Origin: Clostridia bacterium
GTDB taxonomy: Bacteria > Bacillota > Clostridia > TANB77 > CAG-508
Length of the DNA: 64,000 bases
Assembly (NCBI GenBank): GCA_017458285.1
Contig: JAFTFU010000004.1
Location: forward strand, 52,561 to 116,560
Direction: 5' to 3'
This document shows, piece after piece, positions 1 to 64,000 of the stretch. Under the pieces are notes generated by a model, which was given only the letters and a program-made list of their open reading frames with translations, was not told the DNA's origin and did not search any database. The first letter of the stretch is position 1. Every line of letters starts with the position of its first letter. The position numbers and the translations under genes are program-made.

Positions 1-1
1 T

Positions 2-3000
2 ACAATTACTAAATTAGCTTATTCTTAGGCATCGTTAGCAGATACTGCTTTTACTTATCCAACTGTTTGGAATGGATATGAGTTACGTGCTACTACAAAA
101 TCTGCATTAAGAGACGCAATAGAAAAACAAGGAATTCATGAAGATTATTTACTTTGGGGTGGGCATGCTCTAGGTACTAACAGTTGGAGTCCAATTGATA
201 CAGTGTTAAATGATTATACTCGTGGAAATGGTTTTGCAGGTTTACCTGCTGCAAACATAACAGTTGAACACTCTACTAATGCAGGCTCTTCTTGGACTAC
301 AACTTCAGTATCAGATTTAGTAAAATGTAATTTAGTAACTAATGATTAGTCTCAAGTTAGAATTGTAGCAAGTGGAAATGTTCCTAATAATGCAAATCCT
401 CAATTGAGAATAACGATTAAATGTTCTGGTTCAACTTATTTTTAGTTAAAAAAGATTCATATTTTGATTAGTACGAGTGGATCATCAGGATGTAAAGTTA
501 CTATTAAAGGTTCTTTAAATTCTGCACCTACTAATTTTAATTAGACAATTTGTGATGATGTTGCTGTTACTGGGTGGAGTGGATGGAATTCTATTACTTG
601 TGATACAGTTGTAGGTGCAAATGATAGTCAAATTCATTCTTTACAATTTACTTTTACTTAGACAGGTGTTAGTTCTAGTTATGTTACATCGGGGTTCTGT
701 GTTTACAATATTTCTGGATATGGTTATATGAAACATACAGCTCCTTCACAATTAGCAAAATAGAGTCATGTTTATACCATAGATGGTAATGATAATGTAA
801 CTTTTCCAAATACAGGCTCTGTAATAATTAGTAAAACTCAAGATGCATCGGGAACAGCTGATAATAAACCAGCTTTAATTGTAGGTGGTCTTTCAACCGG
901 CTCTCATATTGAAATAGATTCAAATGAAATTCTTGCTAAATCTAATGGAACAACTCCTACAACATTATATTTACAAGATACTACTGGAACTGTCTCGGTC
1001 GCAGGTAGTGGAGGTTTAATTGTTTCAAATTTAACTGCATCTCAAGCAGTTTCTACAGACACAAATAAAAAATTGGTTTCTTCTAATCTTACTACAGCAG
1101 ACCCTTCAGCTTCTGGTTCAGGAATTACTTATATAGCAAGTATTTCTTAGAGCGCGATTGGTAAAATTACAGCTACTAAATCAACAGTAAGAAATGCTTC
1201 TACTTCACAAACAGGCGTTTTACAATTTACTGCAGCTAATACAAATACACAATTAAATACTTTAACTACCGGTAGTTCTACACCAGTAGATGCAGATTAT
1301 TATATTTCTCAATATGTTGGGGGAGGTACAACTACTACAACGTATCATCGTCGTCCAATGTCCGCACTGTGGGATTATATAAAAGGACATATTATTGACG
1401 ATTTATATTGGGCTAATATTAAAGTATAGGATAGTAGTAAGACTGATACTATTCCTACTTTTAAAACTATTTATTTTGGAAGTGTTGATCCTACTACAAG
1501 TGGAAGAGGTATATTAACATTCAGTTCTACATACCCTAATTATGGATTATGGTATTTTAATGATTCTACTGATGTTATTACTTTAGATGGCCATGGAAAA
1601 GCCAATAGTAAAACAGAAGCTGATTTAGCCATTAATGCTTTAGGTGCGGGTATTATTTCTACAAGAAATAGATATATACCTCATACTGGAAATACTACTG
1701 GTACAGTTGGTACAGCAATAAAACCTGTATATGTAGATGCTGGACAAATTAAAGCCAGCACTTCTACTATTGGAACTTTTGAAAAACCAATATATTTAAA
1801 CGCGGGCACCATTACTGCTTTAAATCCTGTTTGGCTATTAAGTGGTGGAACTGCAACTGCGAATAATGAAGATTTAAACGCTGCAAAATATAAAGTCATT
1901 GGAAATTATTATAGTGATGAAAATGCTAAATCTAAAACTATTTTAAATAGTCCTTTTGGAGCCGCTGCTTCTACTAATTGTTTAAGTTTTACCCTAAAAA
2001 CAGAAGCCTCTTTAGGCACAGGTACAACTTATCTTCGCTAGCTTTGGAGAAGTTATAATTCAGGAGTTGAAGCTGAAAGAACTTCTGCAAACAGTGGTTC
2101 TTCTTGGTCTACTTGGAGAACTAAAGTATTTAAAAATAGTGATGCTACTACTGCCGCTGGAAATAGTACAACACCAGTTTATGTAACTGCAAATGGTGCT
2201 GTTGCTACAGGTTATCCTTATTTAAGATATATTAATTCAACGGATGTTACAACTTATTCTGTAGATGAATTAGGAAAAACTGCAAGCATTGCATATATTA
2301 GAGCTACTGATGCTAATGCTCCTGTGTCAGGTCATATGATGTATATTAATGCTGGAATAGGACATATGGGAACTCCATTTTAGATTGGTATTCATGATAG
2401 TGATAATTTATATATTTATAAAAGATGGTATTCTTCTAGTGCATGGTCTGCTTGGACTAAGATGAATGCAGGACATGCAGACACTGCTTCACAAGTTTAT
2501 TCTACTCATACGTATCCAACAACTCGTTCATATATAGAATATCAACAAAATTAGTCTACTGGAAGTGGCAACGTTAGTTTAAGACACCATAATGCATTAT
2601 CAGTAAGTAGTAATATGGATACGACGAATACTTCAACAAGATGGACAGAATTATGGATTGGTAATGCAACTGCCTCTGGGACAGTTGGTAATAGTCAAGG
2701 TTGGTTAGCTCTTTATACTTCTGGAGTAAATTATACATAGATTTCCGCTTATGGAACTGGTAATAACAATTATTTTAATATTCCTAATTATTCAGGAACA
2801 GGTTATGCTCTTACTAGTTCAACTTTAACTAAAGGTTCAGCTACTAAAGGAATATATATTACTACAAATGGTCAAGCAGCAGAAATGTCTCATGAATTAA
2901 AAGCTACAGTTAATTCAGGAACTGAAAGTCGTTTAGCTTATTATTCAGCTGAGGGAACTATTTCTCCTGCTTCTCATATTTAGTATATTCCTACTCAAAA

Positions 3001-5977
3001 TGCAGAGTTAGGTACAACTAAAGGTTCAGTAAATGGTTTATTTATTTATGGTCCTGCTTATGGCAATGACACTGCTAATTTAGGAAGTGCTACGATTAAT
3101 GTATTTAGATATGGAGACCCTGGTCCTTAGATTAGATTTAGCACTGGATTAGGAACTGCTAATGCAGGAGCTGCAGAATCAAGCGCTATAATTTGGTCTG
3201 ATCATTCTTCTAGCATTGGAACAGATTAGTCTTTTCATTTTGTAGGATAGAATAATACATCTCATGCAGCTTCTAATGTTGGAGTTGTAACAAATACTTT
3301 TATTGGTAAAACACGTATATCTGCTGGTGTAAATTATGCTAATACTAATTATGTACTTTTTTCTAATGGTACAACAGGAATAAATGGATAGCTTTATTTG
3401 CAAGGCGCTTCTACAAGAGATACTGCACCTTCTTCTAACGATAATAGAGTTTTATATTTTACAGATTCAGCACGAAATGATTAGGGCCATATTTATTTTA
3501 GACATAATACTGCTGGTCAGCATTTAATGTATTTAAATACTTATTCTTCTGGCACTAAAGGAACTAGAGATCATATTGTATTAATTTCTGATACTGATAC
3601 TACAGATCCTCATTATATACAAATTAATTCTAGAATTAGCACTGGATTAAATATTAGTGGTACTAGAGGTTTTGCATATAATGCTGCTACCGCTGGAACG
3701 CATATTAGTGCGGCTGGCAATATACATATTACAGCAGCGTCACCTTATATTTAGTTTTATAATAATACTTCAGCATCTTATACGGGATATATTCAAGATA
3801 CAGCTGCTAATGGCATGGTTTTTAATCATGCAACAGTAGCAACGACCGCAGTTACCGCTTTAAGTCCTATTAATTCAAGTTTTAAACCTTAGTTTCAATT
3901 TGGAGGCTTAACTTATGTTAATGGAATATTAACTACTAATGGCTCTGCTTATATTAAAGGACGTGTTACAAGTTATGACTAGTGGAATATAATTTATTTA
4001 TCTAATATTACTAAAACAACAGCCCCCTCAAGTAGCACAGATGGAGGAATTATATTAAGAGATAAAGCAGGTACTAATTTAGCACTATTTCGAATTTGGG
4101 AAAATACCTCAATGGATAGATGTGCCAATATGTATGTTTATGGTAATAGCAATAATGCTGAAGTATCAATTTTTGCAAAAGCAGATGGTGATAGATATTT
4201 ACAGTGGACTGGAGGTATTATAAATCATACAGTTGAAGTCCGAGGACTTTTAAAGAGTACTAATTATTCTAATACTGTAACTATTGGTTCACAAAATGCA
4301 GGTTACACTCATATTTATAATAGTGCTAATATTCCTTTCATTTTTAATAAAAGTGTTTTAACTGCTGCGGGGGATTTAGGTGATACATCTTATCCTTGGC
4401 ATAATATTGTTTTAGGTAATTCTGCAGGAACAGCAAATGCTGATATTATTTTACATAGTTCTAAAGCTAATAATACACTGATTAGATTTTTAGTTAATAC
4501 TTCTAATGGTGATGGTCAAGGTATCCGCATTGGCGGCGGAGGATTAACCATTATTGGCGGTGGAGAATCTGCAGCAACAGTATAGTCTGGCACTGGTTAT
4601 GCAAGCGATGCAGAACAAATGCTTGTTACCAATGATTCGAGCATTAAATTTTATCCCAATCAATAGAGTGGTTATACTGCTTCAGCTTTAATTGAAATGA
4701 CTGCAGGTAGACTTTGGGTTGGAGTTAATGGAGATACTACAAGAGAGAATCAAATTTTAGTTCAGTCAGGCGCAGGACAATTATATATGTATAGCGCTGC
4801 TTCTACGACAGGAGCAAAGGGAATATATTTTCCTGCTCATGGAGATAATCCAGCAGGCTATATTGCTTATGTTGATTCAGAGCATAGAGTTTATTATAAT
4901 GGTAATTTTACAAGCCAAAGAGTTAAATTAATTGCAAATCAAGGTTCGCAAATTAATTCTGGAGTTTGGCTTAGAACTTGTATTGTTCAGAGTTATTAGA
5001 ATTATGCTAATTTTTAGATTAGATTAACTGGAGGATGGTCAACTGGTAGTCCAACAATAGCTACTATTGATGTAAATATGCGTAATGGTTTGGCTTCTAT
5101 GAAATTAGTTCATAGAGGATTTTTAGGAGTAATTGGTAAAGTAAAATTAGTTAAATTAGCAACTAATACCGCATATTTAGATGTTTATGTAAGAGAAAAT
5201 TCTAATAATACAGATTATTTTGGTCAATTTATTGGAAATGTCACTGTTACTCAAGATAATAATACAACTCATGGAACAACAAATGTTACTACTACAGATG
5301 TTACTGGTTTAGACGTTTTAGATTTAACAGTTGCAGTAGGAAATGCTTCAACACCAGTATATATTGATGCCACTGGTAATCCTGTAGCTTGCACCGCTTA
5401 TAATTCCGCAACAAATATTAGAGCTGCAACAGTTAATATTAACAATGATACAACTTCTAAATTATTTGTTTTAGGAGCAACTACTACTGGGTATACTTCT
5501 ATTTATAGAGAATCATCTGTATACATGCAAAACAATGTTCTTATGGGAGCTGCTTGGAACGACTATGCAGAATTCCGTCAATCAAAAGAAAGTAAAAAAA
5601 TTGAACCAGGTAGAGTAGTTTATGAAAATGGTGATGATACATTAAGTATGTCAAATGAGAGATTAATGCGTGGATGTAGTATTGTATCTGATACTTATGG
5701 TTTTGGCATTGGCGAATCTGAAGAGGCTCAACTTCCAATAGCCGTTTCTGGACGAGTATTAGCTTATCCCTATGAAAATAAAGAAGAATTTAAAACATAT
5801 ATTGGTTGGCCAGTTTGTTCTGGTCCAAATGGAACAGTTAGTATAATGACTGAAGAAGAAGAAATAAAATATCCAAGTCGTATTATTGGAACTATATCAG
5901 CAGTACCAGACTATGAGATTTGGCATGGTGGTGTTGATGTAATAGTTGACGGGCGAGTTTGGATTAAAGTGAGGTAA
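2..5977 (+). CDS. giant tail fibre / receptor-binding protein (5' end outside window; ~1991 codons here, dozens of sense TAG codons)
   Basis: Frame 2 stays open from nt 2 to TAA 5975-5977 if TAG is sense. This was checked codon by codon at 2-1500, 3750-4120 and 4580-5080. Track ORFs 3527, 4112, 4697 and 5078 are all in this frame. Composition is S/T/G/N-rich and fibre-like. The C-terminus (AAWNDYAEFRQ...AVSGRVLAY...DGRVWIKV) resembles the autoproteolytic intramolecular-chaperone domains of phage fibres. Confidence 0.8.
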
Positions 5978-6971: not shown

Positions 6972-7030
6972 ATTTTCAACTCCTTTTTTTTCTTTTATAG
7001 TAACAAAAAAAAAAAAAAAGAGTCAAAAAA
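6972..7030 (-). promoter_or_regulatory. conserved promoter/5'-leader cassette TTTGACTC-T15-GTTACTATAAAAGAAAAAAAAGGAGTTGAAAAT-ATG (copy 1)
   Basis: The reverse complement is almost identical to 57322-57373. It contains TTGACT, a long T tract, TATAAA, and a GGAG RBS 9 nt from the ATG. Confidence 0.45.
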
Positions 7031-7031
7031 T

Positions 7032-10620: not shown

Positions 10621-11106
10621 TTACTCTCCCCAATTAAAAGCAGCTTGCTTATTTGCGCAAGCACCTATACAAATGGCATCACAAATATCTTGAATAGGTT
10701 TAAGTCCATAGTTTTCATTTACCCAAGCCTATGCCGCACGTTTTTGTTCAGGTCGAGTTTTACCTTTTATACCTAAAACCGATTTCCAAGTTCCAGCTAA
10801 GATTGCTTCTACTGGAACTTTTAAATCTAAACAAAGTTCATAAAGAACTCCAAAAACTTCTGCGAGAATTTTAAATGTTTGTACATTATTTACTCGCTAT
10901 CCATCCATATAAATATCTTCTAAAAAAACTTTTTCAATTTGATTTTCTTGAATTAAAGTTTTTACTTGCAATTTTAATTCATGTAATCGTTCATAAACAT
11001 TTGTTATACTATGCAAATCAATTTTTCCATATGAATCTAATTTTCCATCTTGAAATATAGCCCAACCACTTACATTGCTTGCTTGGTCAAGTGCTAATAT
11101 TTTCAT
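10621..11106 (-). CDS. ruvC: RuvC-like Holliday junction resolvase
   Basis: MKILALDQASNVSGWAI N-terminus typical of phage RuvC. 162 codons with 2 sense TAG; TAA 10621-10623. Confidence 0.8.
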
Positions 11107-11945
11107 CTTTTTAGCTCCTTTATTTTTTCTTTAGTTAATTTATTTTTAGTATCAATTAACTCAGGACATTCTTTCCAGTGAAGAGGAATATTAGTAATGG
11201 GGTGTTTTCCTGCCGTTTTTGCTTTCCCACGAATACATCTTCTAATAGAACTTGAAGAAAAACCATATTTCTATTCTGCTTCTAAGCTTGAATTAAATGA
11301 TTCCTTTAATTCAAAACAATATATAGGAATTTTTATTCCTTTTAAAATTTCATGTTTATTTTTTAATTCATTAATTTTTTGTTGTTCTATTTGATTAGTA
11401 TAAATCCAATGAATAGGCTATCCATTGGGCATAAAACCTGCATATTTTAATTTATTTTTACAAACTTTTTGAATTGAGCTATTATCTATTCCAGTAGCTC
11501 GTTCAGCTTCTAAAGCACTTTCAAAAATTAAATCTAATTCAATACAATAAACTGATTTATTAATACTTTTTTTAAAAGTACCATCTTGCCACATCTAATA
11601 ATTTAATTTACGACGATTTTCTTTTTGATTTTTTGTTAGAGTATTTGTTAATCCTCCAGCTGTTAAATTATAACCATAATCTGGATCTTGTGTATTATAA
11701 AAAGCAATTAATTCTTGTTCTTTTAAATTAGCTTCTTCTTTAGTTAAATTAGAATAAAGAATATCGTGTGTAAAATTATCCCATCCATATTTTAAAATAG
11801 CAGAGCTAAAATGACTATTAGGCTATTTTTTTATATATTCATAACCGTTTTTACCCCATCTTTTTTTAGGAGTTTGCTTTGTCTATCCAATATATTTTTT
11901 ATTATTAATTTTATTAGTATGACAATAAATCTTGTAATTATTCAT
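11103..11945 (-). CDS. free-standing GIY-YIG homing endonuclease with repeated NUMOD/IENR-type DNA-binding modules
   Basis: NNYKIYCHTNKINNKKYIG(TAG)T. The TAG sits at the Q of the GIY-YIG motif. 281 codons. TGA overlaps the ruvC ATG (ATGA). Confidence 0.8.
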
Positions 11946-12018: not shown

Positions 12019-12603
12019 TTATTTGGAAGTACTGCCGAACCCCCCAGTGCGTTCAGATTTAATGGGAATATCTCCAGAAACAGTCCCATAATAAAGAAAA
12101 ATTCCTTGTCCAATTTTATCTCCCTTTTTAAGGAGAATATCTCTTGGAGATAGATTAATTAATTGAAAATAAATATGTCCTTCATTATCAGGATTATTAT
12201 AATAATCTCTATCAATAATACCTACACCATTAGCTAATACAAGCCAATGCTTTAAAGGTAAAGAGGAACGCACTTGAAGCTATAAATACATTTCACGAGG
12301 AATATAAGCTTTAATACCTGTTGGAACTAAAGTAGGTTTTACTTTTAATTTTTTAGTTTCAGCTGCAAGTTCATCTAATGTTACAGTGTGGTCAAATGGA
12401 AAATTCATTCTAATGTTTAAATAATCAAAACCGCCACTCTCAGGTTTAAAATAAGCAGGAATAATTGTGTCTTCTGCTACTATAAAATCATAACCAGCGC
12501 TATCCCAAGTTGCACGATGAGGCATTAATTCATCGTGTTCTTTATATTGAGAAATAAGCTCAAAGCGAGGAAAATCCATATTATTCTTCAATCCCTTCAC
12601 CAT
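12019..12603 (-). CDS. dut: dUTPase
   Basis: Two track ORFs join in frame through TAG 12280-12282 (..PREMYL-Q-LQVRSSLPLKHW..GVGIIDRDYYNN..ERTGGFGST). The start may instead be ATG 12579 (MDFPRF). Confidence 0.85.
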
Positions 12604-13118: not shown

Positions 13119-13641
13119 ATGGCACCACTCCTCCATCATAAGGGAAAAGCATGTAACAATAAACTTCATTATCATCTTTATTTCTAAACCAAATTTCAAT
13201 ATGATCTTCACAAACATCATGACTTACTATTGGTCCAATAGCTAAAGAAACAGCCAATAGCGCGGAACCTAAATCTTTTAAATCATTAATTTCATTTTGA
13301 TTATTTACAAAGACAGTATAATAGGAAGTTTCTACGCTTAACAACATATAATATTTATTATGAATTTTTTCATGATATTGATTAAATTCATTTATAAATT
13401 CTTTCATTTGACTGGTTTCATAATTAGGTAATTGCCGAATAATACTACGATTTAATTCATAAAGACTAATTTCAGGACCTTTTCCCTTAGCTGTTGGTAA
13501 ATAAGGTATCCATCTTCCATCTTTAAATTCAAATGCTTCATGAGTTTCTTCAACAATGCAAATATCCCCATCATTAGCGTGATTAGCCAAAAGTAAAGAA
13601 TTGTTTAAATCTTCAGCTCTCGCTACTCTTTTTAATTTCAT
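13111..13641 (-). CDS. hypothetical protein
   Basis: Intact 176-aa ORF. Confidence 0.8.
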   Translation of the reverse strand: MKLKRVARAEDLNNSLLLANHANDGDICIVEETHEAFEFKDGRWIPYLPTAKGKGPEISLYELNRSIIRQLPNYETSQMKEFINEFNQYHEKIHNKYYMLLSVETSYYTVFVNNQNEINDLKDLGSALLAVSLAIGPIVSHDVCEDHIEIWFRNKDDNEVYCYMLFPYDGGVVPFG

Positions 13642-14125
13642 TCTGCATAAACTCTCTTATATTTATTATTCTTTGATTTTTAGAACCTCTCATTGCTAAA
13701 GTAATATCACGTTCAGCGGCAATAAAAGGTCCATCAATCAAGTAATCTGATAATTCTAAAATATGTTTTAAATGAGGTTTATTCTATTGAAATAAATTTT
13801 CTGCTAAATAACCAGTCCAAACATAAATTAAAATATCAGGATAATGTTCTCTAACACTTGTTATTACTAAATCAGTTAAAAATAAATTTTCATCACATAA
13901 AGGTTCTCCACCCATTACGCTAAAATTGCGCTAAACATCATTAGCATTTAAACCTTGAAGAATCTCTTTCAAAGTATCATTAGTAAATTCTTTACCACCA
14001 TTAAAATCCCAAGCCTCCGGATTATGACAATCCTTACAATGAATTGGACAACCTTGAGTAAAAAAGGTTAGGTTTACTTTTTTACCTGCGGCGATATCAT
14101 TTTTTATAAGACCTGCGTAACGCAT
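13613..14125 (-). CDS. nrdG: anaerobic ribonucleotide reductase activating protein (radical SAM)
   Basis: MRYAGLIKNDIAAG..GCPIHCKDCHNPE cluster. Continues through 2 sense TAG to TGA 13613-13615. Directly downstream of nrdD. Confidence 0.85.
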
Positions 14126-15126
14126 TACTCCATCACTCCTACGTGTTTCACGCGGTGGTGAACTTCATCTTGTTTACCTAAATTAAAAGCGGTTTTATAA
14201 TTGCCAGTTAAATAACCAGTTACTCTACGTAATTGCTGAATATTCTCACTACCGCAAATAGGGCAAGCATCATTTATCTCACCTTGGAAACCGCAGTCTA
14301 AACAAGTATCGCTTGGGACATTAATAGCAAAATATGGAATATCTTTATCCATAGCATAATTTACAATTTGTTCTAATGCTTCTGGATTATGAACTGCTGA
14401 AGCATCTAATTCAACATAAGTAATACATCCGGCTTGAGAATATCCTGTTAATTGACTTTCAATATCAATTTTTTCAAAAGGACTTAATTCATGCCAAACA
14501 GGAACATGCATACTATTTGTAAAGAATTCTTTATCTGATACAAGTGGAATTTCGCCATATTTTTCTTTAAACTTTTTCATGGCTGTATAACAAAGATTTT
14601 CAGCAGGAGAATAATAAACTCCAAAATTAAGTTTATATTCTTGTTTAAATTCTTTGCAACGAGTATTAAATAATTTTTCAATACGTTTAGCTAATTCCAT
14701 ACCCTCTGGAGTTGTATGGTCTTTACCAATAAGAATCTATAAACATTCTGCCAAACCTAATTGTCCAAGGCTTAATGTTCCATGCTTAAGCGCACTAATA
14801 ATTCCTTCTTCTGGCTTATATCCAAGCATTAAACCATTTTCATACATAAATTTTGCAGAAGCAGGACTTTGTGAAGCAATATAATTAAAACGTTCAATTA
14901 ACATATCTTTAGCTTCATGAATTTTTTCATCTAGTAAATTCATAAAGTTATCAATATAATCTCTTTCATCTATTCCAGTATCAGAACGTAAATTAACTTC
15001 TTCTTTTGCCATCATAGCTAATTCTGGTAAAATAATAGTTACAGGACAAATATTACCGCGACCATCTTTAGTTTGTGGATTTGTCCCTGATTCCGCATTA
15101 ATGTCAATTCCATTTGCGGTTCTGCA
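14125..15126 (-). CDS. nrdD: anaerobic ribonucleotide reductase NrdD, exon 2
   Basis: Begins CRTANGIDINAESG..GRGNICPVTIILPELA and ends with the glycyl-radical motif RRVTGYL. One sense TAG. 334 codons in phase with exon 1. Confidence 0.85.
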
Positions 15127-16017
15127 CGTTTTTATCTGATGTTACCATCAGCACTGACTATATCTTCTATCTTACGATAGCCTTCCGCTTCGAGTATGTG
15201 CCTATCTCATACCCTACTCCCTTACATTCATCAGGGATAGTCGATACACTTTATTTTAGATATATTCGTTTTCTTCATATGCAATTTGCCATTCATCTTT
15301 ATAGAGCTTTTTTATTCGACCTAAACAACGACGAGAAATAAACTAATGATTACTTTCTTTAAAGAAATCTTGCATTTGTTTTTGAGTATCAAAATGATAT
15401 TCTTCTTTTGTATTTATATTTCTACATTTTACTTTTGTAGAATGTGGATTTTTATTTCCCATTTTACTTTGTCGCAATTTTTCTTTAATTATTTTCATTT
15501 CTTCATCTGTTTTATTTTTGTAAGTATTTCCGCCACATTTATACTCGGCATTAGTTTCATTATAGCCATTTTTAACACTATTATACCAAGCTATCCAATA
15601 ATGTTCTTTTGCGGTTAATTCTCGCTAAGAAGTAGCTGTATCTAATAGTTCTAATTTAAAATTATCTGGGCCATAATATCTAATTGCTCGTGCAAAATGA
15701 GTGTCTAATATATTATTTAAAGCATCATTCTTATGACGCTTCCATCGTTCTTCAATGGGACGAATACTCTATCCTATATATACCTTATTATTTTTTATAT
15801 TTGTGATTTTATAAACGAACATATTAACATTCTCCTTTTATATTATTATCGTTCATTTTATTTAAAAAATGTTCGACACAATTTAAGGAAAAATGTCCTA
15901 AAATCTTAGCACGGTCTCATCCACTTGGGACCTAACCGTTAGCATACGGACCACCTGCGGCCGCACACACCCTCGGGCGAGGTTCAAAAGGTTTTACATG
16001 AGCTGTAGTTTCCGCTT
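15127..16017 (-). mobile_element. group I intron (T4 td-like, IA2-type) in nrdD
   Basis: The 5' exon ..CAUGGGU pairs with the intron guide GCUCAUG (7 bp, U.G at the splice site). Core elements GCUAACGGU and GAUAUAGUCAGUGC are present. The intron ends ..GAUAAAAACG. An in-frame TAA lies 7 codons into the intron. Confidence 0.8.
15256..15822 (-). CDS. intron-encoded GIY-YIG homing endonuclease
   Basis: MFVYKITNIKNNKVYIG(TAG)S; 189 codons, 3 sense TAG, TAA 15256-15258. Confidence 0.8.
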
Positions 16018-17280
16018 ACCCATGGTTGAGAAGTAAGTCTTGGGGTCATTAATATCATACCCCGCATTACCAGACCAATCAATATTAGCATAATTAGGAT
16101 AAAGACGTTTTGCTGTAGATTTTAATGCTAATTGATATAAATCATAATTAGGGTCACCGGGTTCTCTGTTAATACCTTTCATACATTGGAAAATTCCACA
16201 TGGAAATATTGAAGTTTTATGAAGTTTACCAAGGCCTTCAATAGATACTTCTAATAGAGCTTTAGTTACCATACGACCTTCGGGTAAGGTACAGGTTCCA
16301 TAATTAATAGAGGTAAAAGGTAATTGATTACCACTGCGAGATTGCAAAGTATTAAGATTATGATACATACCTTCCACAGCTTGATGGACTTCTTTTTCTG
16401 TCATATCCATAGCATATTGATAAGCAGCTTTATGTGATTCATCATTAGCTTCAATATCATCAAAAGATAATTCTTTAGGAATAGAATCTAAATAATCTTG
16501 ATCTGTAACCCCTTCAAGATATTTTAATCCATCAATCATATGTTTACGAAAACTTTTACGAACATATGGAACCATAGTCCAATCTAAATGTGTTGCAGAT
16601 ACACCACCAAACTATTGAAGGCTTTGTAACTGGAAAATAACTGCTACTAATTGAAATGCAGTATTTACAGAACCAGCAGGACGTACATCAGTTTGACGAG
16701 TATTAAATCCATTAGCAAGTAAATCATCAAAAGGAATAGATAAACAATTATGATTTCCTACATAATAATTATCAAGGTCATGAATATAAATCATATTACC
16801 TTCATGATTTTCTCTAGCTTTTTTAGAAATTAAATAATCTAATGCTAATTTTTTAGTAACAACTGCTGCAGCTTCTCCTGTGCGTCCGCCAAAAGAATGT
16901 TCATCTACATTAGCATTTTGATTTTGAACATCAGTAGCTTCCAGCTTTTCACGAATAGCATCAATAAAATCATGCTAGTAATTACGAGCCACTTCTTTTT
17001 TATATCTATATCTTATATAAGCTCTTGCAACATCAGGGCGCTCAGAACGCATAAGATATTCTTCAACTAAATCTTGAATTTCTTCTACGGAACAACTATT
17101 TCCATCTTGATATTTAAAACAATCTTCAATATCATAAGCAATATCATATGCAGTATCATCTTCATAGAGTTTTCCATCTACTTCAATAAATGCTGCATTT
17201 ATTGCATCTATAATTTTTTGTTTATTAAAATCGACGATATCACCATTTCGTTTAATTACAAGCAATATTATCTCCTCCAT
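16018..17280 (-). CDS. nrdD: anaerobic ribonucleotide reductase NrdD, exon 1 (ATP-cone plus N-terminal barrel)
   Basis: Track ORFs 16975, 16612 and 15994 join in frame through 2 sense TAG. The exon ends ..YFSTMG at a U. 421 codons. Confidence 0.85.
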
Positions 17281-17340: not shown

Positions 17341-17940
17341 TTACATGTTGTCCTTAGACTGCTCATAATGTTCAAGTTTTTTAAGTGTTTTAAAATGTTC
17401 TAATTCTCTTTTAATAATTTGTTCACTTTTATATAAATCTCTAGTATTATTATTCACTAAAATGTAATAATCGAAATCTATATATTTAAAATCTTTTAAA
17501 TCTGAATCATATCTTCGTAAAATTTCTTTTATATCAGGATACTTTTCTCTTTGTAAGCTACGAATTAATCTTTCTTTATCATCGCATCTAACATATACTA
17601 TTTGAGTATTTAAATTAGGATTTTTAAGTAAAGTTCTGGCTGCGGCAGGATTAGCACTTAAAACATTAATTTGAGAATAAACCAAATCTTCATATCGAGT
17701 GCCATAATACCATCCATTAAAATTTTGCCATTCGGCAAGTTTTCCACTATCTATTTCTTGAAGAAATTCTTCTCTAGAAACAAAATGATAAGGATGACCT
17801 TCTTTTTCTCCTGTTCGTTGAGGGCGAGAAGAAACTTGAGGAACTACATGAAAATCATTAGGGTATAACATTAATAAATGGTCAATAATAAAATTTTTAC
17901 CAGAACCGCTTTCACCAATAAAAACAATTAAATCTTTCAT
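17341..17940 (-). CDS. guanylate kinase-like nucleotide monophosphate kinase
   Basis: P-loop GESGSGKN and a SRPQRTGEKEGHPYHFVS guanylate-kinase signature-like segment. Confidence 0.7.
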   Translation of the reverse strand: MKDLIVFIGESGSGKNFIIDHLLMLYPNDFHVVPQVSSRPQRTGEKEGHPYHFVSREEFLQEIDSGKLAEWQNFNGWYYGTRYEDLVYSQINVLSANPAAARTLLKNPNLNTQIVYVRCDDKERLIRSLQREKYPDIKEILRRYDSDLKDFKYIDFDYYILVNNNTRDLYKSEQIIKRELEHFKTLKKLEHYEQSKDNM

Positions 17941-46036: not shown

Positions 46037-47120
46037 CATGTTTATCTTATATTTCTATAAGCACTGACTAACTCTTCACTCCGGTTTGTCAAACCATCAT
46101 CGTGTCCTCTATTTCCAATCACGTATCAATAGTGATTGTACTCTCCGTCTCACCGGAGATAGTCGATACAGCTTATTTTATATCTTTATAAGTTTGTCTC
46201 GTTATAGCATTATATACAGTACTCCAAGCTCTATCTGGAGCGTATTTTTGCCAAATCTATTTAGGACTTATTCCATTATCATAATCATATCTCATTTGTT
46301 TCACTTGTTCTTCGGTGAAACATTTTTTATTGTTTGCGGCTACTTCGGAAGAATTTGCTTTTGCATTGTGTGAATGCCAATATTTATTTTCTTCAGTATG
46401 ATACTCTGGATAAATATTTTTCCAAGTATCAAACCACCAAACCTTCTAAAGACCTCTTTTTGAAATTTTATCTTTATATTCTTCATAAACTATTTTGAAT
46501 GGAATATGAGCATTATAACATTCTCTAATATATTTTACATCTTCCTCATTTAATAATGCTCGACCATTTTTTGAACCAACCTAACTCCTGTTTGGGTTTT
46601 CGTCTCCGCCTAGAGTAGCATTATATCCATTGATATAAGAATTATAATAATTTATAAAGAACTTTTCCATCTAATCAAGAAGTTCTTTAGAATATTCTTC
46701 TGGAGATAATATTGCGATAATTTCATAATCAAAATTATCAAAACCATATTTTCTTACTGCTTGATGAAACTGACTATTATAATCATTTGCTTTATCATTA
46801 TAAACTGAAGATTTATGATTATATTGACGTCTTTCTATATCAACGCTCTATCCAATATAACATTTATGATTTATTTTATTTTCATATTTATAAATTCCTA
46901 TCATATCACTCTCTCCTTTCATTAGAATATAAGGGAGATACTGATATGATTTACTGGTTTTGTCCTAAAGATATAAAATCTTGCCACGGGATTGCCTTCG
47001 CCTAAACATATTTTGACATATATGTGTAACGGTCAGGTTTCCCCGTTAGCTTTACCTGCGGCCGCAGGTAAAACCCCGTTGATGAAGCGGTAAAAAGGAT
47101 TAGGGCAATAGTTTTCACTT
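46037..47120 (-). mobile_element. group I intron 1 in gyrB (splits the EG|DSA motif)
   Basis: The exon ..GAGGGU pairs with intron GCCCU. Core elements GCUAACGGGGAAACCUGACC, CCCGUGGCAA and GUUAGUCAGUGCUUAUAG are present, with a CUGCGGCCGCAG hairpin. The intron ends ..GAUAAACAUG. Confidence 0.8.
46173..46904 (-). CDS. intron-encoded GIY-YIG homing endonuclease
   Basis: MIGIYKYENKINHKCYIG(TAG)S. 244 codons; RBS GGAGAGAG. Confidence 0.8.
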
Positions 47121-48401
47121 ACCCTCAGTAATATAAATTTCACATTTCTTGCGGTCTTTACTAAAACAATCAGCTAATTTAGAATCAAAGCGTAAAGCTT
47201 TTTCTTTTTTAGCTTGTTTTTCACGAATTGAATCTCTAGCTTTTTGCGCAGCTTCTCTGGCTTTTTTAGCCATTTTAGCTTTATCCGCTATAGCTTTAAT
47301 TTCTTTTTCATTTTGAGTGAACCATATGCGCAATTCATCTGCAATTGCCGCAGTAAATGGTGTCATTTCAAGCTTAGTAATTCGAGTTTTAACTTGTGCA
47401 TCATATGCTACGTTAGGAGCCGTAATATTAAATACAATATATAATCCTTCTTGAATATCATCACCAGAAAGATTATCTTCATTATCTTTAAGCCATTTCT
47501 TTTCTTTGAAGAATTTATTAAATTCTCGTGTAAGCAATGCTTTAATTTGTGTAATATGAGGTCCAACAGAAGTTAATCCTGTATTTACATATGGGACCAT
47601 AGTCATTGAATAATTAGACGTATAAGTCATAACCATATCAATTTTATTTTTCCCATTTGTAAAATTTAAATTAAAACGATTATTAATTAATTCTTTATTT
47701 TTAACTGCTTCATCTACTAAATCATTCAAACCATCTGTAGAATAATAAGTAGTTTTTTCTCCATTATTATCTAATTCTATAGTTAGACCAGGACAAAGGG
47801 CTGCAACAGTTTTAAATAAAACTTTAATTTCATTTACATTTACTTCTGGATGTGTAAAGAATTCTTCACTTGGTTCCCATTCTACGCAAGTTCCATTTTC
47901 AAAATCTTTAGCTGTAAAAATTTCTCGTTTATTAAATTCACCTTCAACAAAATAACAACGCTCTACTTGCCAATTACGATAAGTATAAACATCTAACCAA
48001 TGAGAAAGAAAAGTTGTTATTTTAGAACCAATACCAAAAGAACCTAAAGAAGTGCCTTCATAAGTACCATCTTCTCTATATTTTCCTGAAGTGTTTAATA
48101 CACTGAAAGCTGCTTCAAGAATTGTTTTTCCATCTTCTCTAAAACTATTAGGAATAAAACCTTGCCCATAATCTCGTACACGACACATTTTACCATTTAT
48201 TGCAACTTCAATTTTATCTCCATGACCTAATCTAAATTCATCTACTGCATTAGAAAAAATTTCTACTAATAATTGAGTTGCATATGTCGTATCTCCTGCA
48301 TATACGCCCGGCTTAAGTCTTGTAAATTCTCGTGGGTCTAAGCTTTCTATTGATGTTTCAGTATAAAGTGTTTTATCTATTTCTTTTTCTTTATTCAACA
48401 T
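47121..48401 (-). CDS. gyrB: type IIA topoisomerase subunit B, exon 1 (GHKL ATPase plus transducer)
   Basis: ..EIFSNAVDE..DYGQGF..GSFGIGSK.., ending ..CEIYITEG. No TAG. The start is ATG 48401 or GTG 48422. Confidence 0.8.
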
Positions 48402-49164
48402 ATTTCCATTTAAAACCTCCACATTTATTTCTTATTCCGCGGCATACTTTTGAAATTGCACTACTATCACAATTATTTTCTCTTGCGGCTAATGCCAGTG
48501 TGTCATAAATTTGAATAATAAAATTATCCTCATTTAATTTTGCTACTTTTTTACTAGAAGATTGTATTTGAGTTGTCCCAGGCATACCTTTATATGTATA
48601 TTTATTATATTTAGGGATAAGTAACTCATCTTTTTCATTCAACCAACAAAAATATCTATTATTAGTTGAATGTCTTTCACCCCTACAACAAGCAGCAATA
48701 TGTTTTTCACCTAAATTTTCTTGTTCAGCACAATCTGCAATACAACGCCAAATTTTTATAACATTATGATTTTCATCAATTTCAGCTATTCTTTTTGCAT
48801 TGTTTCGTTTTGTTTCACTAACTTTTTTATAAGTGTTGGGGTCATTTCTTGGATGATGAGTATCTAATGTTTGATTATAACCATTAGGAACTAATGTATT
48901 ATACTTAATTAGATATTCACGTTCTTTTTCTCTGACTTCATATTCATCCATTTCATCTGGGAAATACTATAATATTGTATAAGAGAAATTTTCTAATCCA
49001 TATTTGCGAATAGCGCAGTATAATGGATACTACCCCCTGGGAGTGTCTGGATGATTAACATGATAGAGATGCTAAGAATATCTCCTTTGCGGATTGATAG
49101 AACAACTTGAACCAATATATTTTTTCTAATTTATTAAATTAGTAAAACAATAAATAAAATTCAT
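48391..49164 (-). CDS. free-standing GIY-YIG homing endonuclease upstream of gyrB
   Basis: MNFIYCFTNLIN(TAG)KKYIGSS .. C-terminal CGGFKWKY. 258 codons. Confidence 0.8.
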
Positions 49165-49233
49165 ATTTTTCACACCTTTCATATAAATATGAATTTTATC
49201 TTAAATATGTTGTCCTGTCCTGACCCGACCTTA

Positions 49234-49663: not shown

Positions 49664-49957
49664 TTAAAATTGATTCAACATTTTACTATCTGACCAAGTA
49701 AATGCTTTATAAGAACCTAATCGCATTAAAGCTATATATCTACCAAAAACAGAAGAATTATTCCAATGATTCCTCATACCTTCCCACTATTTTTGAATAT
49801 AAGGATAATCTAATTCTTTTAAAAAAGGTAGGAAAGTAGATTCATCATAAATATCTATCATATTTTTAATTTCTTCTTTAGAGTATTCAAAATAATAAGA
49901 ATTATCTTGACACTTATAATATTGATTATTTAGAAGCTAATTTGTCTGCTAATTCAT
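49664..49957 (-). CDS. hypothetical protein (start uncertain)
   Basis: Open frame ending at TAA 49664-49666. The first ATG (49957) lies inside the 3' end of rnhA. Confidence 0.45.
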
Positions 49958-50357
49958 TCCACTTATCTCCTGAGTGACCTTTTACTTTTTTTAATTCAAT
50001 TCTATATCCATTCTACCAATGTTTATAAAAAGGCTAAATTAAATCTAAATTTTCAGGCGTTTTATTATCTGCTTTTAGCCATCCTTTATTTGCCCAATTA
50101 AACATCCAAGAAGAAAAAATGTTTATACAATATGCGCTATCAGAATATATTATTGGAATACTGCTATTAAATGACTAAGTCCCATATCTTAAAAAAGCCC
50201 ATAAAATAGCTTTAAGTTCTTCTCTATTATTAGTTGTCTCTTGGCAATATTCAGTATGAGTAGTAATTAAATTTTCATTATCGTCTAATATAATTACTGC
50301 AAAGCCTCCTGGCCCACCTGGATTAAAACGACAGCTGCCGTCTGTATAAATAATCAT
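49926..50357 (-). CDS. rnhA: ribonuclease HI
   Basis: MIIYTDGSCRFNPGGPGGFAV..NNREEL..IYSDSAY..KVKGHSGDKWNELADKLA. 3 sense TAG. Confidence 0.8.
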
Positions 50358-52002: not shown

Positions 52003-53262
52003 TTATAATAAATTTGCTAATTCTGCGATTTTACTACGATGAATTTTTTGAAGAGTTACTTCACCATAAAAATCATGTCCTCTAAATATTTTAGATATTC
52101 TACGCATACCATTATTTGCGCCATCATATTCAATTAAATCTACTTGACTTTCTGTATCACCATCAAGTATCATAATACAATCTTCACCGACTCTTTGTAA
52201 AGCTAATTTAGCTAAAGTAATATCAAGATTCTAAGCTTCAGTGATATAAATACCAGCGTTCATTCCAGAAGTATCATAACCTCTAATATCACTCATAGGT
52301 AAAAGAATTAATTTATTTTCTTCAATTAAACGCAAAACCGCTTCTTGTCCACCTAATTTACTAGATAGCATATTACCAATTTGAGCATCTAATAATTTTT
52401 CGTTTTTATCTCCTGGATAGTAACCAAGTTTAGCTGCGTTACGAGTAGCTACAGTATTACAAAAAACAATTATTTTATCTATGCGATTATGTTCTAATAA
52501 ATAAAATAAATACCCAAGAGCTAGGTGAGATTTTCCTGCTCCAGAAGGACCGCGCAACATAGTAATTTGATTGTTTAATAAGCTATCTGCGGCCATTGCT
52601 TGAAAAATATCATCTTTATAAGGTTTAATATTTCCAAACCAATCACTTTCAAAAGTTTTATATTTAAGTGGTCTAAATTCAGATCCAGTCCAACATAAAG
52701 TATCTACTCTATCTCCACGACAATCCCAAATATTAACATATTCATTTATTTGAATATTTGGTAAATTTAGATGACCTTCATAAAGTAAGGCTAATTCTTC
52801 ATCTGATAAGTCTATATCTTTATAGCCTGTATAATTATCCGGTTTTATAATAATACTTTTTACTTCTATAGGTAAAAACGCTGAAGCTAGTTGCTTCATT
52901 GCCAAGTCATTAGTATAAAAAATTATTTTATCTTCAGAATTTTCAGTTAATATTCGTTTATCTAATGCATAAAGTATAGATGCAATAATTTTTCCATCAT
53001 TGTTTAATTCTAAATATGCAAAATTATTAGAAATATTATCTGTATAAATTAAACATATATATTCATTAATATGTTCATCTAAGAGATGAAGAAGTGTACG
53101 AGCTGTATGTTTTATTCTAACATCTTTATTTTGTGATACTTTAATTTTTTCTAATTCTTGCAATGTAATAGAACTAATTACTGTTATAGATTCATTACTC
53201 TATTGAAATAAATCTTCATTTAATAATAATAAGCTACTTGTATCATAAAAATTAAAAATCAT
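52003..53262 (-). CDS. phoH: PIN-domain PhoH-like ATPase
   Basis: ATG 53262 (MIFNFYDTSSLLLL, PIN-like). Walker A GPSGAGKSHLA. 2 sense TAG join the track ORF to both the upstream and downstream parts. Confidence 0.75.
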
Positions 53263-53503
53263 CTTCTTCATCATCCTCTTCTTCATTTGGAATTATAAAT
53301 CCAATTTGATTTACAGGTTCTTCACCTAATTCATTTTTTATTTTCTCTAATTGATTAGTGTCTTTCTAAATAGTTAATACCATTGGACTTTTTTTTAATT
53401 CAAGGTATTGTAATAATAAATTTATTATTCCATCGCCTAATGGCACTATCCATTGAGTAAATATAACACCTAAAATAAAAGCTATTAAAAGTTTAATAGG
53501 CAA
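53252..53503 (-). CDS. hypothetical small membrane protein with acidic tail
   Basis: TTG 53503 after AAAGGGGTGA. TM segment LLIAFILGVIFTQWIV. Ends EEEDDEEDDF. Confidence 0.45.
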
Positions 53504-54165: not shown

Positions 54166-55374
54166 ATGATATTTCATGATTGTACACAATGTACGAATGA
54201 ATGTCGGTTGCAAGCATTTGAAGCTGTCAGAGATGAATATTCATCTATTGACAGCTTCAAGTATAATCCGCAAATTCATTCTAAACCAAAAAGTATTTTA
54301 TTAGGATTAACTAATAAGTGTAATTTAAATTGTAACTATTGTTTTGTACATTAGAATCCTTTAGATATGACTTTTGATGTAGCAGATAAAGGAATTTAGT
54401 GGGTATTATCTAATTGTCAAGAAGATGAAAAGCCAACTGTTGGATTTTTTGGAGGAGAGCCTTTATTAAAATTTAATGATATAATTGTTCCTATTGTATA
54501 GAAATATAAAAATAAAGTTAATTTCTCTATTACTACTAATGGGATTCTATTAAATGAAGATATTATTGATTTTCTTCATGATTATGAAATTTATCCTTTA
54601 TTATCTTTTGATGGAGTTCCAGAAGTATAGAATAAACAACGCTCTAATTCATTTAATCAAGTATTGAAAAATATTCCTTATCTTTTATTACGTTTTCCTG
54701 AAATAACTATGCGGGCTACAGTTACAAAAGAATCTATTCCTTATTTATATGATACTGTATTAATGGCAGATGAATTAGGATTTAAACATATTTTCTTTTG
54801 TGAAAATGCTTATGAAGATTGGGATAAAGAGATTGAAAAAGAGTTAGAAGAATAGTTTAAAAAAATAGGCTTATTTATTTATAAAAGATTAAGAAATAAA
54901 GAATCTGTTTTAAAAATTGATCCTTTTAATCGTATTTTTGAAAGTATTGATAAAGGATAGCATAATGAATTATATTTTGATAATAGAATAATACGATGTG
55001 GGTTAGGAACTACTTCCTGCGCAATTACTCCAGAAGGAAATATAATTCCTTGTCAAGAAAAAATTTCTAATATAACGCATATAATTGGAAATATTTATAC
55101 AGGCATTGATTATAAAAAACATAAAGAATTTTTAATAGATTACTTTAATAAAGTAAATAATTTATCTTGTGATAAAGGGTGTTCGGATAAAAATAAATTA
55201 ATTTGTTTATCTCATTTATGCCCTTCTCGTTTAGAAGATTTAAATTATTAGTTTTCTACAGCTTCGTGCGCTTTTTCTCGTATGGCAACAAAAATTTGTT
55301 TAAGGCTATTCTTTTTATGTAGTTATAGCATAGAACCTAATATTAGAGAATATTGGGGAGGTGGATTAAATTGA
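54166..55374 (+). CDS. radical SAM enzyme with C-terminal SPASM-type Cys clusters (anSME / sactisynthase-like), enzyme A
   Basis: LGLTNKCNLNCNYCF (CxxxCxxC); GGEPLL; RCGLGTTSCAITPEGNIIPC; CDKGC..CLSHLC. 403 codons. 8 sense TAG, all checked in frame. TGA at 55372-55374. Confidence 0.8.
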
Positions 55375-56546: not shown

Positions 56547-56547
56547 A

Positions 56548-57941: not shown

Positions 57942-58712
57942 TTAACCATAATAGCCTCCATCGGGAGGGTCTCTGCGATATTGCCAATCTCTAGGACAAG
58001 TAACATTCATCCAACTGGGTCCGGAGCATTTTCCTTCATGAACACAACGAGCGCACTGCCTTCTTTTATATTCATCAACTTTTAACCAAGTTTCATAAGG
58101 CTTAATTTTAGTAACATCAGGTTCAACGCAAATATCATGTGGAGTAGTTCCTTCTTTAATCAAATGCGTATCTGTCCATTTAGTTTTCATCTCTTGGATA
58201 ATATCATTTAAATTACAAGGATAACAATCGTGAGCATCCATTGCAGTATTATACATCCAAAGATTATTCTCAAAGAAATGTTCTTTTTGATGAGTATGTC
58301 CAAAAAGATTAAGAGTCATTTGTTTTAAAAACTTATCATTATTCCCAGTGAGAGAAGGAAAATGACTCATATAAAAATGGTATCCCTGATGCTTTAGATA
58401 AATAGAATTTTTTGTTTCTACTACATTAGGAAGTTTAGAAAAAGCTTCCCATCTTTTATCTGTACAATGATTACCTCTAACTAAATGTAATTTTCCATTT
58501 ATTCTACTAATTAGATTTAAACCTTGTTCTAAACTTTTTTCTCCCCCTAAAAGAAGATCTCCTAATACATACAAATCATCTTCTGGTTTAACCAATTTAT
58601 TATTTCTTTTAATAATTTCTTCGTTCATTTCATTAACAGAAGAGAAATTTCGTGCTTTCCAAATAAATTCTCTATTGTGGCAAAAATGCCAATCACTTGT
58701 TATAAAAATCAT
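57942..58712 (-). CDS. calcineurin-like metallophosphoesterase with Cys-rich C-terminus
   Basis: SDWHFCHN, LGDLLLGG, GNHC and GHTH motifs. No TAG. Confidence 0.75.
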   Translation of the reverse strand: MIFITSDWHFCHNREFIWKARNFSSVNEMNEEIIKRNNKLVKPEDDLYVLGDLLLGGEKSLEQGLNLISRINGKLHLVRGNHCTDKRWEAFSKLPNVVETKNSIYLKHQGYHFYMSHFPSLTGNNDKFLKQMTLNLFGHTHQKEHFFENNLWMYNTAMDAHDCYPCNLNDIIQEMKTKWTDTHLIKEGTTPHDICVEPDVTKIKPYETWLKVDEYKRRQCARCVHEGKCSGPSWMNVTCPRDWQYRRDPPDGGYYG

Positions 58713-59367
58713 AAAACATCAATCCTTCATCTAAAGTGTCTGTTTTTGGAATTTCTTTCCAATGATAACCATAAGCTTTTTCAGTTATGCCATTTAGACA
58801 ACGTCTTATATTAGGATGTGCTGTCTTTTTTAAATATATATCTACATCAGCCATTGATTTGAAAACTAAATTTTTCTCTACTAATACAATATAACTTTTA
58901 ACAGGCTTTATTCCTAATGCTCGTTTAGATAATTCTTTATAGTTAATATTTTTAGAATTTAATGCTGTATATACTACCTAATCATAGATTTGAAAATATT
59001 GACAAGTTTTAGTTATTGAACAGCCATTTAATAAATAATAATTTACAATTTCATCGTAATTATATTTTGTATGACCTAAACCACCCAGGGCCGCATTATA
59101 TCCATTTTTAAAACTATTATAATGATTTATCCAAAATATTTCTCTTTCATTTAATTTTGAATTTTCACATTCCTCAATTTTTTCAATTATAAAATTCTAT
59201 TCACCATATTTATTAATCGCTAAATGTAAGGGAGCATTATGATCTTTATCCTACTCATTTTTTGCACTTTTACAATGGTCTAACCATCTGCGATGAATGG
59301 AATTTCTTGTCTATCCAATATATAATTTTTGATTTAATTTATTTGTAATTTTGTAAATAGAACCCAT
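58693..59367 (-). CDS. free-standing GIY-YIG homing endonuclease
   Basis: MGSIYKITNKLNQKLYIG(TAG)T .. AYGYHWKE. 225 codons. The end overlaps the phosphoesterase start. Confidence 0.8.
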
Positions 59368-63469: not shown

Positions 63470-63476
63470 AAATATA

Positions 63477-64000
63477 TCACTCCTTTATTAAATACTAATC
63501 TCCCATTATCATGTCTAAAGTTATGTTATTTAATTCCCAATATGGAATACGTACTAATGGAATATTATGCGTTAAAGCATATTTATTTTTTTGTTTATCA
63601 TAAATTTGTCTTTGCTAAAAAGATTGTTTAAAAATAGGAATATCTTTAAAATGCTATTCTCCATCAAATTCAATTAATCTTATTGGTTCATTGTTTTTGA
63701 ATAAAATAAAATCATATCGTAATTCTCTGCCATTATTTCCCATTAAATCTTTAAAATATGCTTTATTATATAAATATGAAATATTGTGTTCTTGTAGAAT
63801 AACTTCTATCTAAGATTCGCCGGCACTTTTATTTTTACATCCACAGGAAACAGTATTTCCTAATACTAAATCATGACTACTCACTAATTTAATATTTCCA
63901 CAAGCACACTAACATTTCCAAAGTGGACGATTATCATTATTTTTTATATTTGTTGCTTCTATAACTTTTAATTTTCCAAATGTTTGATTTAATAAATTTT
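63477..64000 (-). CDS. homing endonuclease of the zinc-ribbon plus PD-(D/E)xK-like family (5' end outside window)
   Basis: ..LLNQTFGKLKVI..C(TAG)CACGN..VSCGC..LRYDFILF..LIEFDGE(TAG)HF. TGA 63477-63479. Confidence 0.7.

Follow-up and report, generated by a model that had tools for sequence, protein, structure and literature searches.

What does TAG encode in a stretch of DNA whose conserved genes look broken under the bacterial genetic code? The question is raised by 64,000 nucleotides of contig JAFTFU010000004.1 (positions 52,561 to 116,560; assembly GCA_017458285.1, deposited as a Clostridia bacterium), hereafter the window, which has a GC content of 30.2% over its 64 kb and carries the genes of a phage. 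In this phage TAG has very probably been reassigned from stop to glutamine, with TAA and TGA retained as stops, as in NCBI translation table 15. An initial annotation, made from the letters of the window alone, had proposed this reading.

TAG as a sense codon

Coding density was compared across genetic codes, a check suggested in the initial annotation, and was measured as the coverage of the window by greedily chosen, non-overlapping open reading frames (ORFs). Under code 11 the coverage is 59.7%, with 91 ORFs of 140 amino acids on average. It rises to 89.5% when TAG is read as sense, with 85 ORFs of 225 amino acids on average, so that table 11 does not predict equally long genes; reading TGA as sense gives merely 62.6%. 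Reading TAG as sense also lengthens the longest stop-to-stop frame, from 784 codons to 1991. This frame (2..5977, plus strand) is a very long structural ORF, putatively tail-fibre-like, which is open from the window edge. It holds 25 TAG codons and neither TAA nor TGA, and under code 11 it falls apart into 26 pieces, none longer than 319 codons. TAA and TGA would be expected at about 6% of the triplets in this frame, which excludes chance as the explanation for 1991 codons without either of them.

In-frame TAG codons number 191 and are found in 53 of the 85 ORFs (62%), all of which terminate at TAA (58 ORFs) or TGA (27 ORFs). Their position along the ORFs is even, apart from a depletion in the last decile; had the ORFs spuriously run on beyond genuine stops, the reverse would be seen. 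Pfam domains extend across TAG codons in seven proteins encoded on the minus strand: RNase H (49926..50357, three TAGs within a full-length match), the RecJ-like exonuclease (26968..28743, 15 TAGs, domains DHH and RecJ_OB), dUTPase (12019..12603, one TAG), NrdD, its activase NrdG (13613..14125, two TAGs), the DnaB-type helicase (30100..31644, two TAGs) and a PIN-PhoH protein (52003..53286, two TAGs). Alignment to homologues, taken from the ORFs of about 160 related loci, bridges 121 of the 191 TAGs with at least 15 aligned residues on either side. The gain in coverage from about 60 to 90%, the domains and the alignments agree with the proposal that TAG is a sense codon and that solely TAA and TGA act as stops.

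Identity of the amino acid

The residue encoded by TAG was tested mainly on the gene with the RecJ-like product. The codons of this gene were aligned with those of 80 loci from IMG/VR encoding RecJ relatives of 44-65% identity. The codons found opposite its 15 TAGs are CAA (296), CAG (124), AAA (110), GAA (94) and TAG (47). At four conserved TAG columns the relatives carry CAA or CAG in 76, 75, 71 and 65 of the 80 sequences. Eleven relatives have no TAG in their recJ gene and gain no coding density by readthrough; they probably use the standard code, as judged from these two features, and display glutamine in 10 or 11 of the 11 sequences at five of the 15 columns. More distant outgroups, YorK of SPbeta and gp97 of Geobacillus virus E3, have glutamine at two TAG columns, which are the only two of the 15 that are informative at this distance.

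The same residue emerges from the other genes. When every window gene with homologues is counted, TAG faces glutamine most often (1241), followed by glutamate (544) and lysine (400). Substitution profiles derived from the same alignments give the opposite-TAG profile a log-likelihood per observation of -2.51 for glutamine, -3.11 for glutamate and -3.15 for lysine. Among the 89 TAG columns with at least 10 homologue residues, glutamine is the majority in 29, that is 33%, a rate to be compared with 40% for true CAA/CAG columns and 1-3% for columns of other residues. A single residue reaches 80% or more in 15 TAG columns, and this residue is glutamine in 14 of them and glutamate in one. The homologue alignment that had been proposed as a check therefore yields glutamine at 14 of 15 conserved columns, with none of the alternatives fitting better. 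Solved structures concur: one TAG of the DnaB gene corresponds to the glutamine of the conserved SQL motif in all three DnaB structures compared, and one TAG of nrdD to the glutamine of QYGG in two of three NrdD structures. Conserved columns, likelihood, RecJ codons and structures all support the proposed assignment.

Paralogues within the window, from which the initial annotation had deduced glutamine, tell a similar story with one correction. In the Y-I/V-G-Q-S/T motif of GIY-YIG endonucleases the glutamine is encoded by TAG in the genes starting at 11945, 15822, 20265, 46904 and 59367 and by CAA in those at 36740..37777 and 40691. The residue is not invariant as had been stated, being lysine in 44935..45633 and 21782..22468 and serine in 48391..49182. 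The L-T-N-Q-x-F-G motif occurs twice in a zinc-ribbon/DUF2726-type endonuclease (38133..38888, minus strand, seven TAGs), its glutamine codon being CAA in the first repeat (residue 10) and TAG in the second (residue 87), as had been noted.

The phage genome and its decoding tRNA

Related assemblies place the window in a larger genome. The 471-amino-acid protein encoded at 62054-63469 (minus strand) has an exact match on the ENA metagenome contig XIEF21-1_SAMN15829979_METAG-scaffold_71 (183,384 bp), whose position 4084 corresponds to the end of the window, in reversed orientation. Over its initial 3 kb the overlap is identical, over its full 11.9 kb imperfectly so, and by this comparison the window would be the scaffold_71 phage or a near-identical sibling. 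The stored gene calls of scaffold_71 already read TAG as sense, for instance in the seven-TAG gene of a 402-amino-acid radical-SAM protein. The same study yielded a sibling assembly of this phage, scaffold_44 (183,573 bp), which was found through a TAG-free DUF2828 protein encoded beside a tRNA cluster. Its last 55 nucleotides are the first 55 of the window-matching contig, a signature of circular assembly that places the tRNA with anticodon CUA, tRNA(CUA), about 10 kb past the right end of the window. Judged from these assemblies, the window belongs to a gut phage whose genome is circular, has about 183 kb and 30% GC and contains an SPbeta-type replication module, the likeness of which suggests a Firmicutes host. 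A close relative in IMG/VR is IMGVR_UViG_3300021400_000219, at about 92% nucleotide identity. A megablast search of 20 kb of the window against GenBank phages returned no nucleotide-level relative.

The window was correctly described as lacking a suppressor tRNA and a release factor gene: a tRNA scan of its 64 kb found no tRNA, no Rfam family was detected in it at gathering thresholds, and its ORFs show neither a release factor-type Pfam match nor a GGQ context. No tRNA was found by scanning the replication-region loci of the 80 relatives either. The tRNA cluster of the relatives lies upstream of the homologue of 62054-63469, that is past the right end of the window, and five of them have a tRNA(CUA) there. 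The search beyond the window, which had been recommended, thus located a tRNA(CUA) in the sibling assembly and in the ~92% relative (74-75 nucleotides, 10-15 kb past the right end of the window) and in six further, more distant relatives. These tRNAs are too diverse for a single DNA search pattern.

In the last 12 kb of scaffold_44 (L169) the tRNA genes are tRNA-Ser, tRNA-Gln(UUG), tRNA(CUA) at 6717-6790, tRNA-Lys and tRNA-Arg. The tRNA(CUA) was called by ARAGORN and by the Rfam model RF00005 (56.7 bits). It forms a regular cloverleaf with a 7-bp acceptor stem that features U1-A72, G2-C71, G3-C70 and G73, and its CCA end is encoded. This acceptor end presumably resembles that of Escherichia coli tRNA-Gln. 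In the ~92% relative (L174, 4888-15292) 23 tRNAs for most amino acids are packed in about 10 kb, including tRNA(CUA) and a normal tRNA-Gln(UUG), showing that the phage family carries a near-complete tRNA set.

Two further features of the scaffold_44 tRNA region were noted. Position 2669-2758 matches the Rfam selenocysteine tRNA model (51.2 bits, gathering threshold 47) and received no ARAGORN call. It is predicted to fold with an acceptor stem of 8 bp, a D stem of 6 bp and a long variable arm, and its anticodon is UGA, for the serine codon UCA, rather than UCA; the tRNA is unusual, of a Sec-like or 'allo' type. The region also has two GIY-YIG genes, one of 326 amino acids without TAG (6790-7794) that starts 24 nucleotides 3' of the tRNA(CUA), and a second with four TAGs between tRNA-Ser and tRNA-Gln.

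A plausible course of decoding is that the phage tRNA(CUA) is charged with glutamine by a host enzyme during infection and would then outcompete the host release factor 1, so that genes with TAG are translated in full. Genes free of TAG, such as dnaE, gyrA, gyrB and those of the helicase, the AAA_24 ATPase and others, could be translated by the naive host machinery, while the TAG-rich ones (those of the structural block and the radical-SAM cluster and, most of all, the homing endonuclease genes) would need the suppressor first.

Uneven use of TAG across genes

Glutamine is encoded in the window by 191 TAG (24%), 518 CAA and 78 CAG codons, which are unevenly spread. TAG is absent from 32 of the 85 ORFs, including those of dnaE, gyrA and gyrB. 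The TAG-free genes comprise the three pieces of dnaE (46 glutamine codons), gyrA (41880..44225, minus strand; 781 codons, 19 of them CAA or CAG), the gyrB exons, the genes for a UvrD-like helicase and an AAA_24 ATPase, and 62054-63469. TAG use varies also between phages: the recJ genes of the relatives (44-65% identity; loci L006-L085) contain from 0 to 15 TAGs and some of the loci show no gain of density by readthrough. On this sequence evidence, recoded and apparently standard-code members are interleaved in the phage family.

The strongest bias separates mobile genes from the genes that they interrupt. TAG accounts for 56 of 132 glutamine codons in endonuclease genes (42%), most of which lie in intron-like insertions, versus 8 of 124 in the interrupted genes (6%; Fisher p = 6e-12, odds ratio 10.7). 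The mobile endonucleases, rich in TAG, thereby stand out unusually clearly from the TAG-poor genes that host them.

CAG outnumbers CAA in a few TAG-free genes (5:2, 5:1, 12:4 and 11:0, versus 518 CAA to 78 CAG overall). The CAG-preferring genes code for the AAA_24 ATPase and its neighbour (32205-34194), the OB-fold/PHA02142-like protein (62054-63469) and the DUF2828 protein (10001-11518 in the last 12 kb of scaffold_44). Early or high expression may explain this preference, as may a recent acquisition of the genes.

Interrupted genes and their insertions

Most genes that appeared fragmented become whole when TAG is read through, as the initial annotation had claimed; nrdD, which it listed among them, does not, because it is split by an endonuclease-bearing insertion. 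The genes dnaE, gyrB and ligA, which had not been listed, likewise stay split. The gene dnaE, coding for the polymerase III alpha subunit (17937..24084), is in three pieces (22666-24084, 20461-21696 and 17937-19331) and gyrB (44411..48401) has three exons (47115-48401, 45785-46039 and 44411-44809). In two parts are nrdD (14125-17280), ligA (39272-41883) and an unknown gene (36068-36490 and 34620-35066, within 34620-36490). The N-terminal exon of nrdD (15994..17280, two TAGs) encodes the ATP-cone and positions 2-265 of the NRDD profile, while the C-terminal exon (14125..15141, one TAG) encodes the glycyl-radical part. Relatives have single-ORF versions of all five genes, coding for 1304-1323 (dnaE), 620 (gyrB), at least 706 (nrdD), 645 (ligA) and 242-299 (the unknown gene) amino acids.

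The five genes, all on the minus strand, contain seven insertions, which carry genes of GIY-YIG or zinc-ribbon endonucleases. In gyrB the cuts fall exactly at the conserved motifs EG|DS and DVDG|AH. The frames of the second and third dnaE pieces and of the nrdD C-terminal part are open for 97, 104 and 42 codons, respectively, upstream of any ATG, implying that these pieces must be joined to the one upstream. Production of separate polypeptides from dnaE, gyrB and the other split genes was also considered and is less likely than splicing, given these open frames. The insertions share the short motifs GCTAACGGGGAAACCT, TGCGGCCGCAGGT and AAGATATAGTC, the last of which is presumably similar to the conserved group I intron core. 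By their sequence features the insertions look like group I introns; Rfam found none in the window at gathering thresholds, nor in 13000-49500 by an E-value search.

Homing endonuclease genes

The endonuclease genes listed in this section are on the minus strand. The GIY-YIG genes whose motif glutamine is TAG are 11103..11945 (five TAGs), 15256..15822 in the nrdD insertion (three TAGs), 19441..20265 in the second dnaE insertion (two TAGs), 46173..47009 in the first gyrB insertion (six TAGs) and 58693..59367 (four TAGs). Lysine occupies the motif position in the SegE-like GIY-YIG/NUMOD3 endonuclease of the first dnaE insertion (21782..22468) and in the GIY-YIG endonuclease of the second gyrB insertion (44935..45633), each with two TAGs. 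The gene between the two ligA parts (40100..40691, its 3' end being approximate) has CAA in the motif and several TAGs downstream. The remaining gene, with CAA in the motif, codes for a coiled-coil and GIY-YIG fusion (36740..37777, 16 TAGs). Its N-terminal transmembrane/coiled-coil part of about 250 amino acids is very TAG-rich and its GIY-YIG domain is C-terminal; 16 TAGs per 345 codons is the highest TAG density of the window.

A tentative and rather doubtful explanation for this enrichment is that the code change acts as a translational lock on the homing endonucleases, set by the phage or by the elements themselves. The lock would prevent the endonucleases from being produced before the suppressor tRNA becomes available and would render them useless once transferred to standard-code phages. 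Since DnaB, RecJ and the product of the gene next to recJ also need suppression, the switch of such a lock would come before replication and not late as in other clades. Delayed endonuclease production was proposed by Borges et al. (bioRxiv 10.1101/2021.08.26.457843) for one family of group I intron endonucleases that is preferentially recoded in the TGA-recoded Agate phages.

Weighing the readings of TAG

Several observations count against the reassignment of TAG to glutamine. No homologue bridges 70 of the 191 TAGs. In 7703-8137, 63477-63743 and 61239-61403 a TAG lies 4-7 codons before the TAA or TGA and could in principle be the stop. Replisome genes with TAG, namely recJ (15), the gene at primase position next to it (6) and the DnaB gene (2), sit among TAG-free genes. 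When compared with 165 other phage tRNAs, the tRNA(CUA) is nearest to tRNA-Trp (0.70 identity), followed by tRNA-Gln (0.68), and its sequence comes from the sibling assembly and from relatives rather than from the exact window-matching contig. Finally, the approximately 80 kb inspected of the ~183 kb showed neither a release factor nor an aminoacyl-tRNA synthetase, so that the search for an RF2-type factor beyond the window, which had also been advised, came out negative over this span. A further 10 kb along the close relative has 14 more tRNAs and no release-factor-like ORF when inspected by eye, without a Pfam scan.

The alternative that survives best is a dual meaning: TAG would be a stop early in infection under the host release factor 1 and become glutamine once the phage tRNA accumulates, so that recoding would mainly time or lock certain genes instead of being a uniform code. 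This possibility, which refines the reassignment rather than contradicting it, has about even chances of being right. It would account for the lack of TAG in dnaE with its 46 glutamine codons, in gyrA, gyrB and in the genes of the helicase, the AAA_24 ATPase and other long proteins, and for the enrichment of TAG in homing endonucleases and the structural block. A timer model of this type was proposed by Borges et al. (bioRxiv 10.1101/2021.08.26.457843). DnaB, RecJ and the product of the primase-position gene are encoded in the same string of genes as TAG-free ones, requiring the switch to precede DNA replication; a simple split between early standard-code and late recoded genes fails here. The same preprint classifies recoding use in replication genes as 'variable', in agreement with the window.

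It is very unlikely that TAG is sense for another residue, be it pyrrolysine, tryptophan, glutamate, lysine, tyrosine, leucine or serine. ARAGORN labels the CUA tRNAs 'tRNA-Pyl', which is its name for any tRNA with a CUA anticodon, the tRNA(CUA) is overall as similar to tRNA-Trp as to tRNA-Gln, and glutamate and lysine rank next after glutamine opposite TAG. These residues are disfavoured by the conserved TAG columns, all glutamine but for one glutamate, and by a likelihood clearly in favour of glutamine. A glutamine majority is reached in 3% of true glutamate or lysine columns versus 33% of the TAG columns. The form of tRNA-Pyl is compact, unlike the ordinary cloverleaf, 7-bp acceptor stem and G73 of the tRNA(CUA). 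No pyrrolysine genes were seen and, with a standard cloverleaf and glutamine in the TAG columns, the features expected of pyrrolysine decoding were not found.

Still a little less probable is that the bacterial host itself reads TAG as glutamine and that the phage follows the code of its host, a view compatible with the presence of TAG in 62% of the window ORFs. The phage lineage encodes its own tRNA(CUA), a third of the ORFs avoid TAG entirely, long ones included, and the same gene in close relatives varies from none to 15 TAGs. To our knowledge no bacterial lineage with TAG coding for glutamine has been described. According to Borges et al. (bioRxiv 10.1101/2021.08.26.457843) about 90% of the genes are recoded when phage and host share the code, compared with 26-71% when the host uses the standard code.

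Next to no credence is left for the standard code, in which the in-frame TAGs would be real stops in pseudogenes, assembly errors or naturally fragmented genes: code 11 still yields 91 ORFs covering 60% of the window and several genes are truly fragmented in another manner, by intron-like insertions, but the frames are broken by TAG alone and never by TAA or TGA (as in the 1991 codons with 25 TAGs, in DNA of 30% GC), Pfam domains and homologue alignments continue through the TAGs, the TAG columns correspond to CAA or CAG in relatives, and the same proteins are found on several independent assemblies.

Other genes of the window

The primase-position gene (28743..29846, minus strand, six TAGs) adjoins the RecJ gene, as do yorJ in SPbeta and the primase gene in Geobacillus virus E3. 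Its label dnaG stands on this position, Pfam providing no match. The ruvC label has a Pfam match, which is present but under the cut-off.

A plus-strand cluster at 54166-57192, inside a region coded mostly on the minus strand, encodes a radical SAM protein (54166..55374, seven TAGs), a cysteine-rich protein of 287 amino acids (four TAGs) and one of 214 amino acids (five TAGs) that features a long terminal run of CxC repeats, CSCNCACSCDCACDCPCPCSCDCSCDCNCSCNCSC. Among replication-type genes, 50987-51988 (minus strand) codes for a TAG-free protein of 333 amino acids with a peptidase C39-like domain, a possible cell-wall hydrolase or processing protease. The absence of TAG would be noteworthy if it is a lysin, as lysis genes are reportedly preferentially recoded in other clades.

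Comparison with known systems

Amber suppressors that insert glutamine are known from E. coli, supE being derived from tRNA-Gln and su7 from tRNA-Trp. The tRNA(CUA) of this phage family has the same anticodon, the difference being that it is phage-encoded. Many Firmicutes make their Gln-tRNA by transamidation.

The replication genes have counterparts in the SPbeta-type module of SPBc2 (yorI-yorL) and Geobacillus virus E3 (gp96-98), where a DnaE-type polymerase, a RecJ-like protein, a primase and DnaB are encoded in the same order. Both of these viruses use the standard code and their proteins are about 35% identical to those of the present phage.

Phage phAss-1, of the proposed Phassvirus (OQ749652; PMC10607447), is a human-gut phage with TAG coding for glutamine and suppressor tRNA(CUA) genes. 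It has many tRNAs and no dedicated synthetase, and its RecJ is annotated as three fragments in GenBank. The relationship is distant: its RecJ is 34% identical, no closer than those of SPbeta or Geobacillus virus E3, its genome has 136 kb versus ~183 kb here, and no megablast match was obtained over 20 kb. Membership of the present phage in Phassvirus was considered and set aside, given the lack of a nucleotide match and the 34% identity of RecJ.

Phages with code 15 in the gut include the crAss-like, Jade, Sapphire, Agate and Lak groups (Borges et al., bioRxiv 10.1101/2021.08.26.457843), and the translation of TAG as glutamine has been proven by proteomics in crAss-like phages (PMC9523058). 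Several of the large recoded gut clades infect Firmicutes and Bacteroidetes (bioRxiv 10.1101/2021.08.26.457843). The comparison with such phages made in the initial annotation was apt. TAG aligned with glutamine, low GC, a phage tRNA(CUA), recoding of part of the genes and recoded structural genes are common to both, and in its genes, alignments and tRNAs the phage displays every sequence-level hallmark of the TAG-to-glutamine class. Its ~183 kb fall within the 150-210 kb of the large clades of Borges et al., and it likely shares with them an affinity to Firmicutes phages.

The default bacterial code loses or breaks a third of the coding sequence, including the 1991-codon gene, those of RecJ and the radical SAM protein and all homing endonuclease genes. 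Table 15 should be tried by annotation pipelines applied to this phage family, whose IMG/VR contigs of 100-200 kb run into the hundreds. The phage is a well-documented addition to the recoded gut phages, one in which the amino acid can be deduced from the aligned codons of close relatives whose recoding extends from none to heavy.

Recoding of this kind, the tRNA behind it and the hypothesis on timing were all published previously and no new question is opened by this phage. Release factor 2 or other proteins for code change are present in a minority of the published recoded phages; unlike in some clades of Borges et al., no RF2 was seen here in the parts read. The most novel feature is the extent of recoding in intron-borne endonucleases: while the bias reported by Borges et al. 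concerns one endonuclease family in phages with TGA recoding (Agate), that of the present phage extends over about ten endonuclease genes in five interrupted genes.

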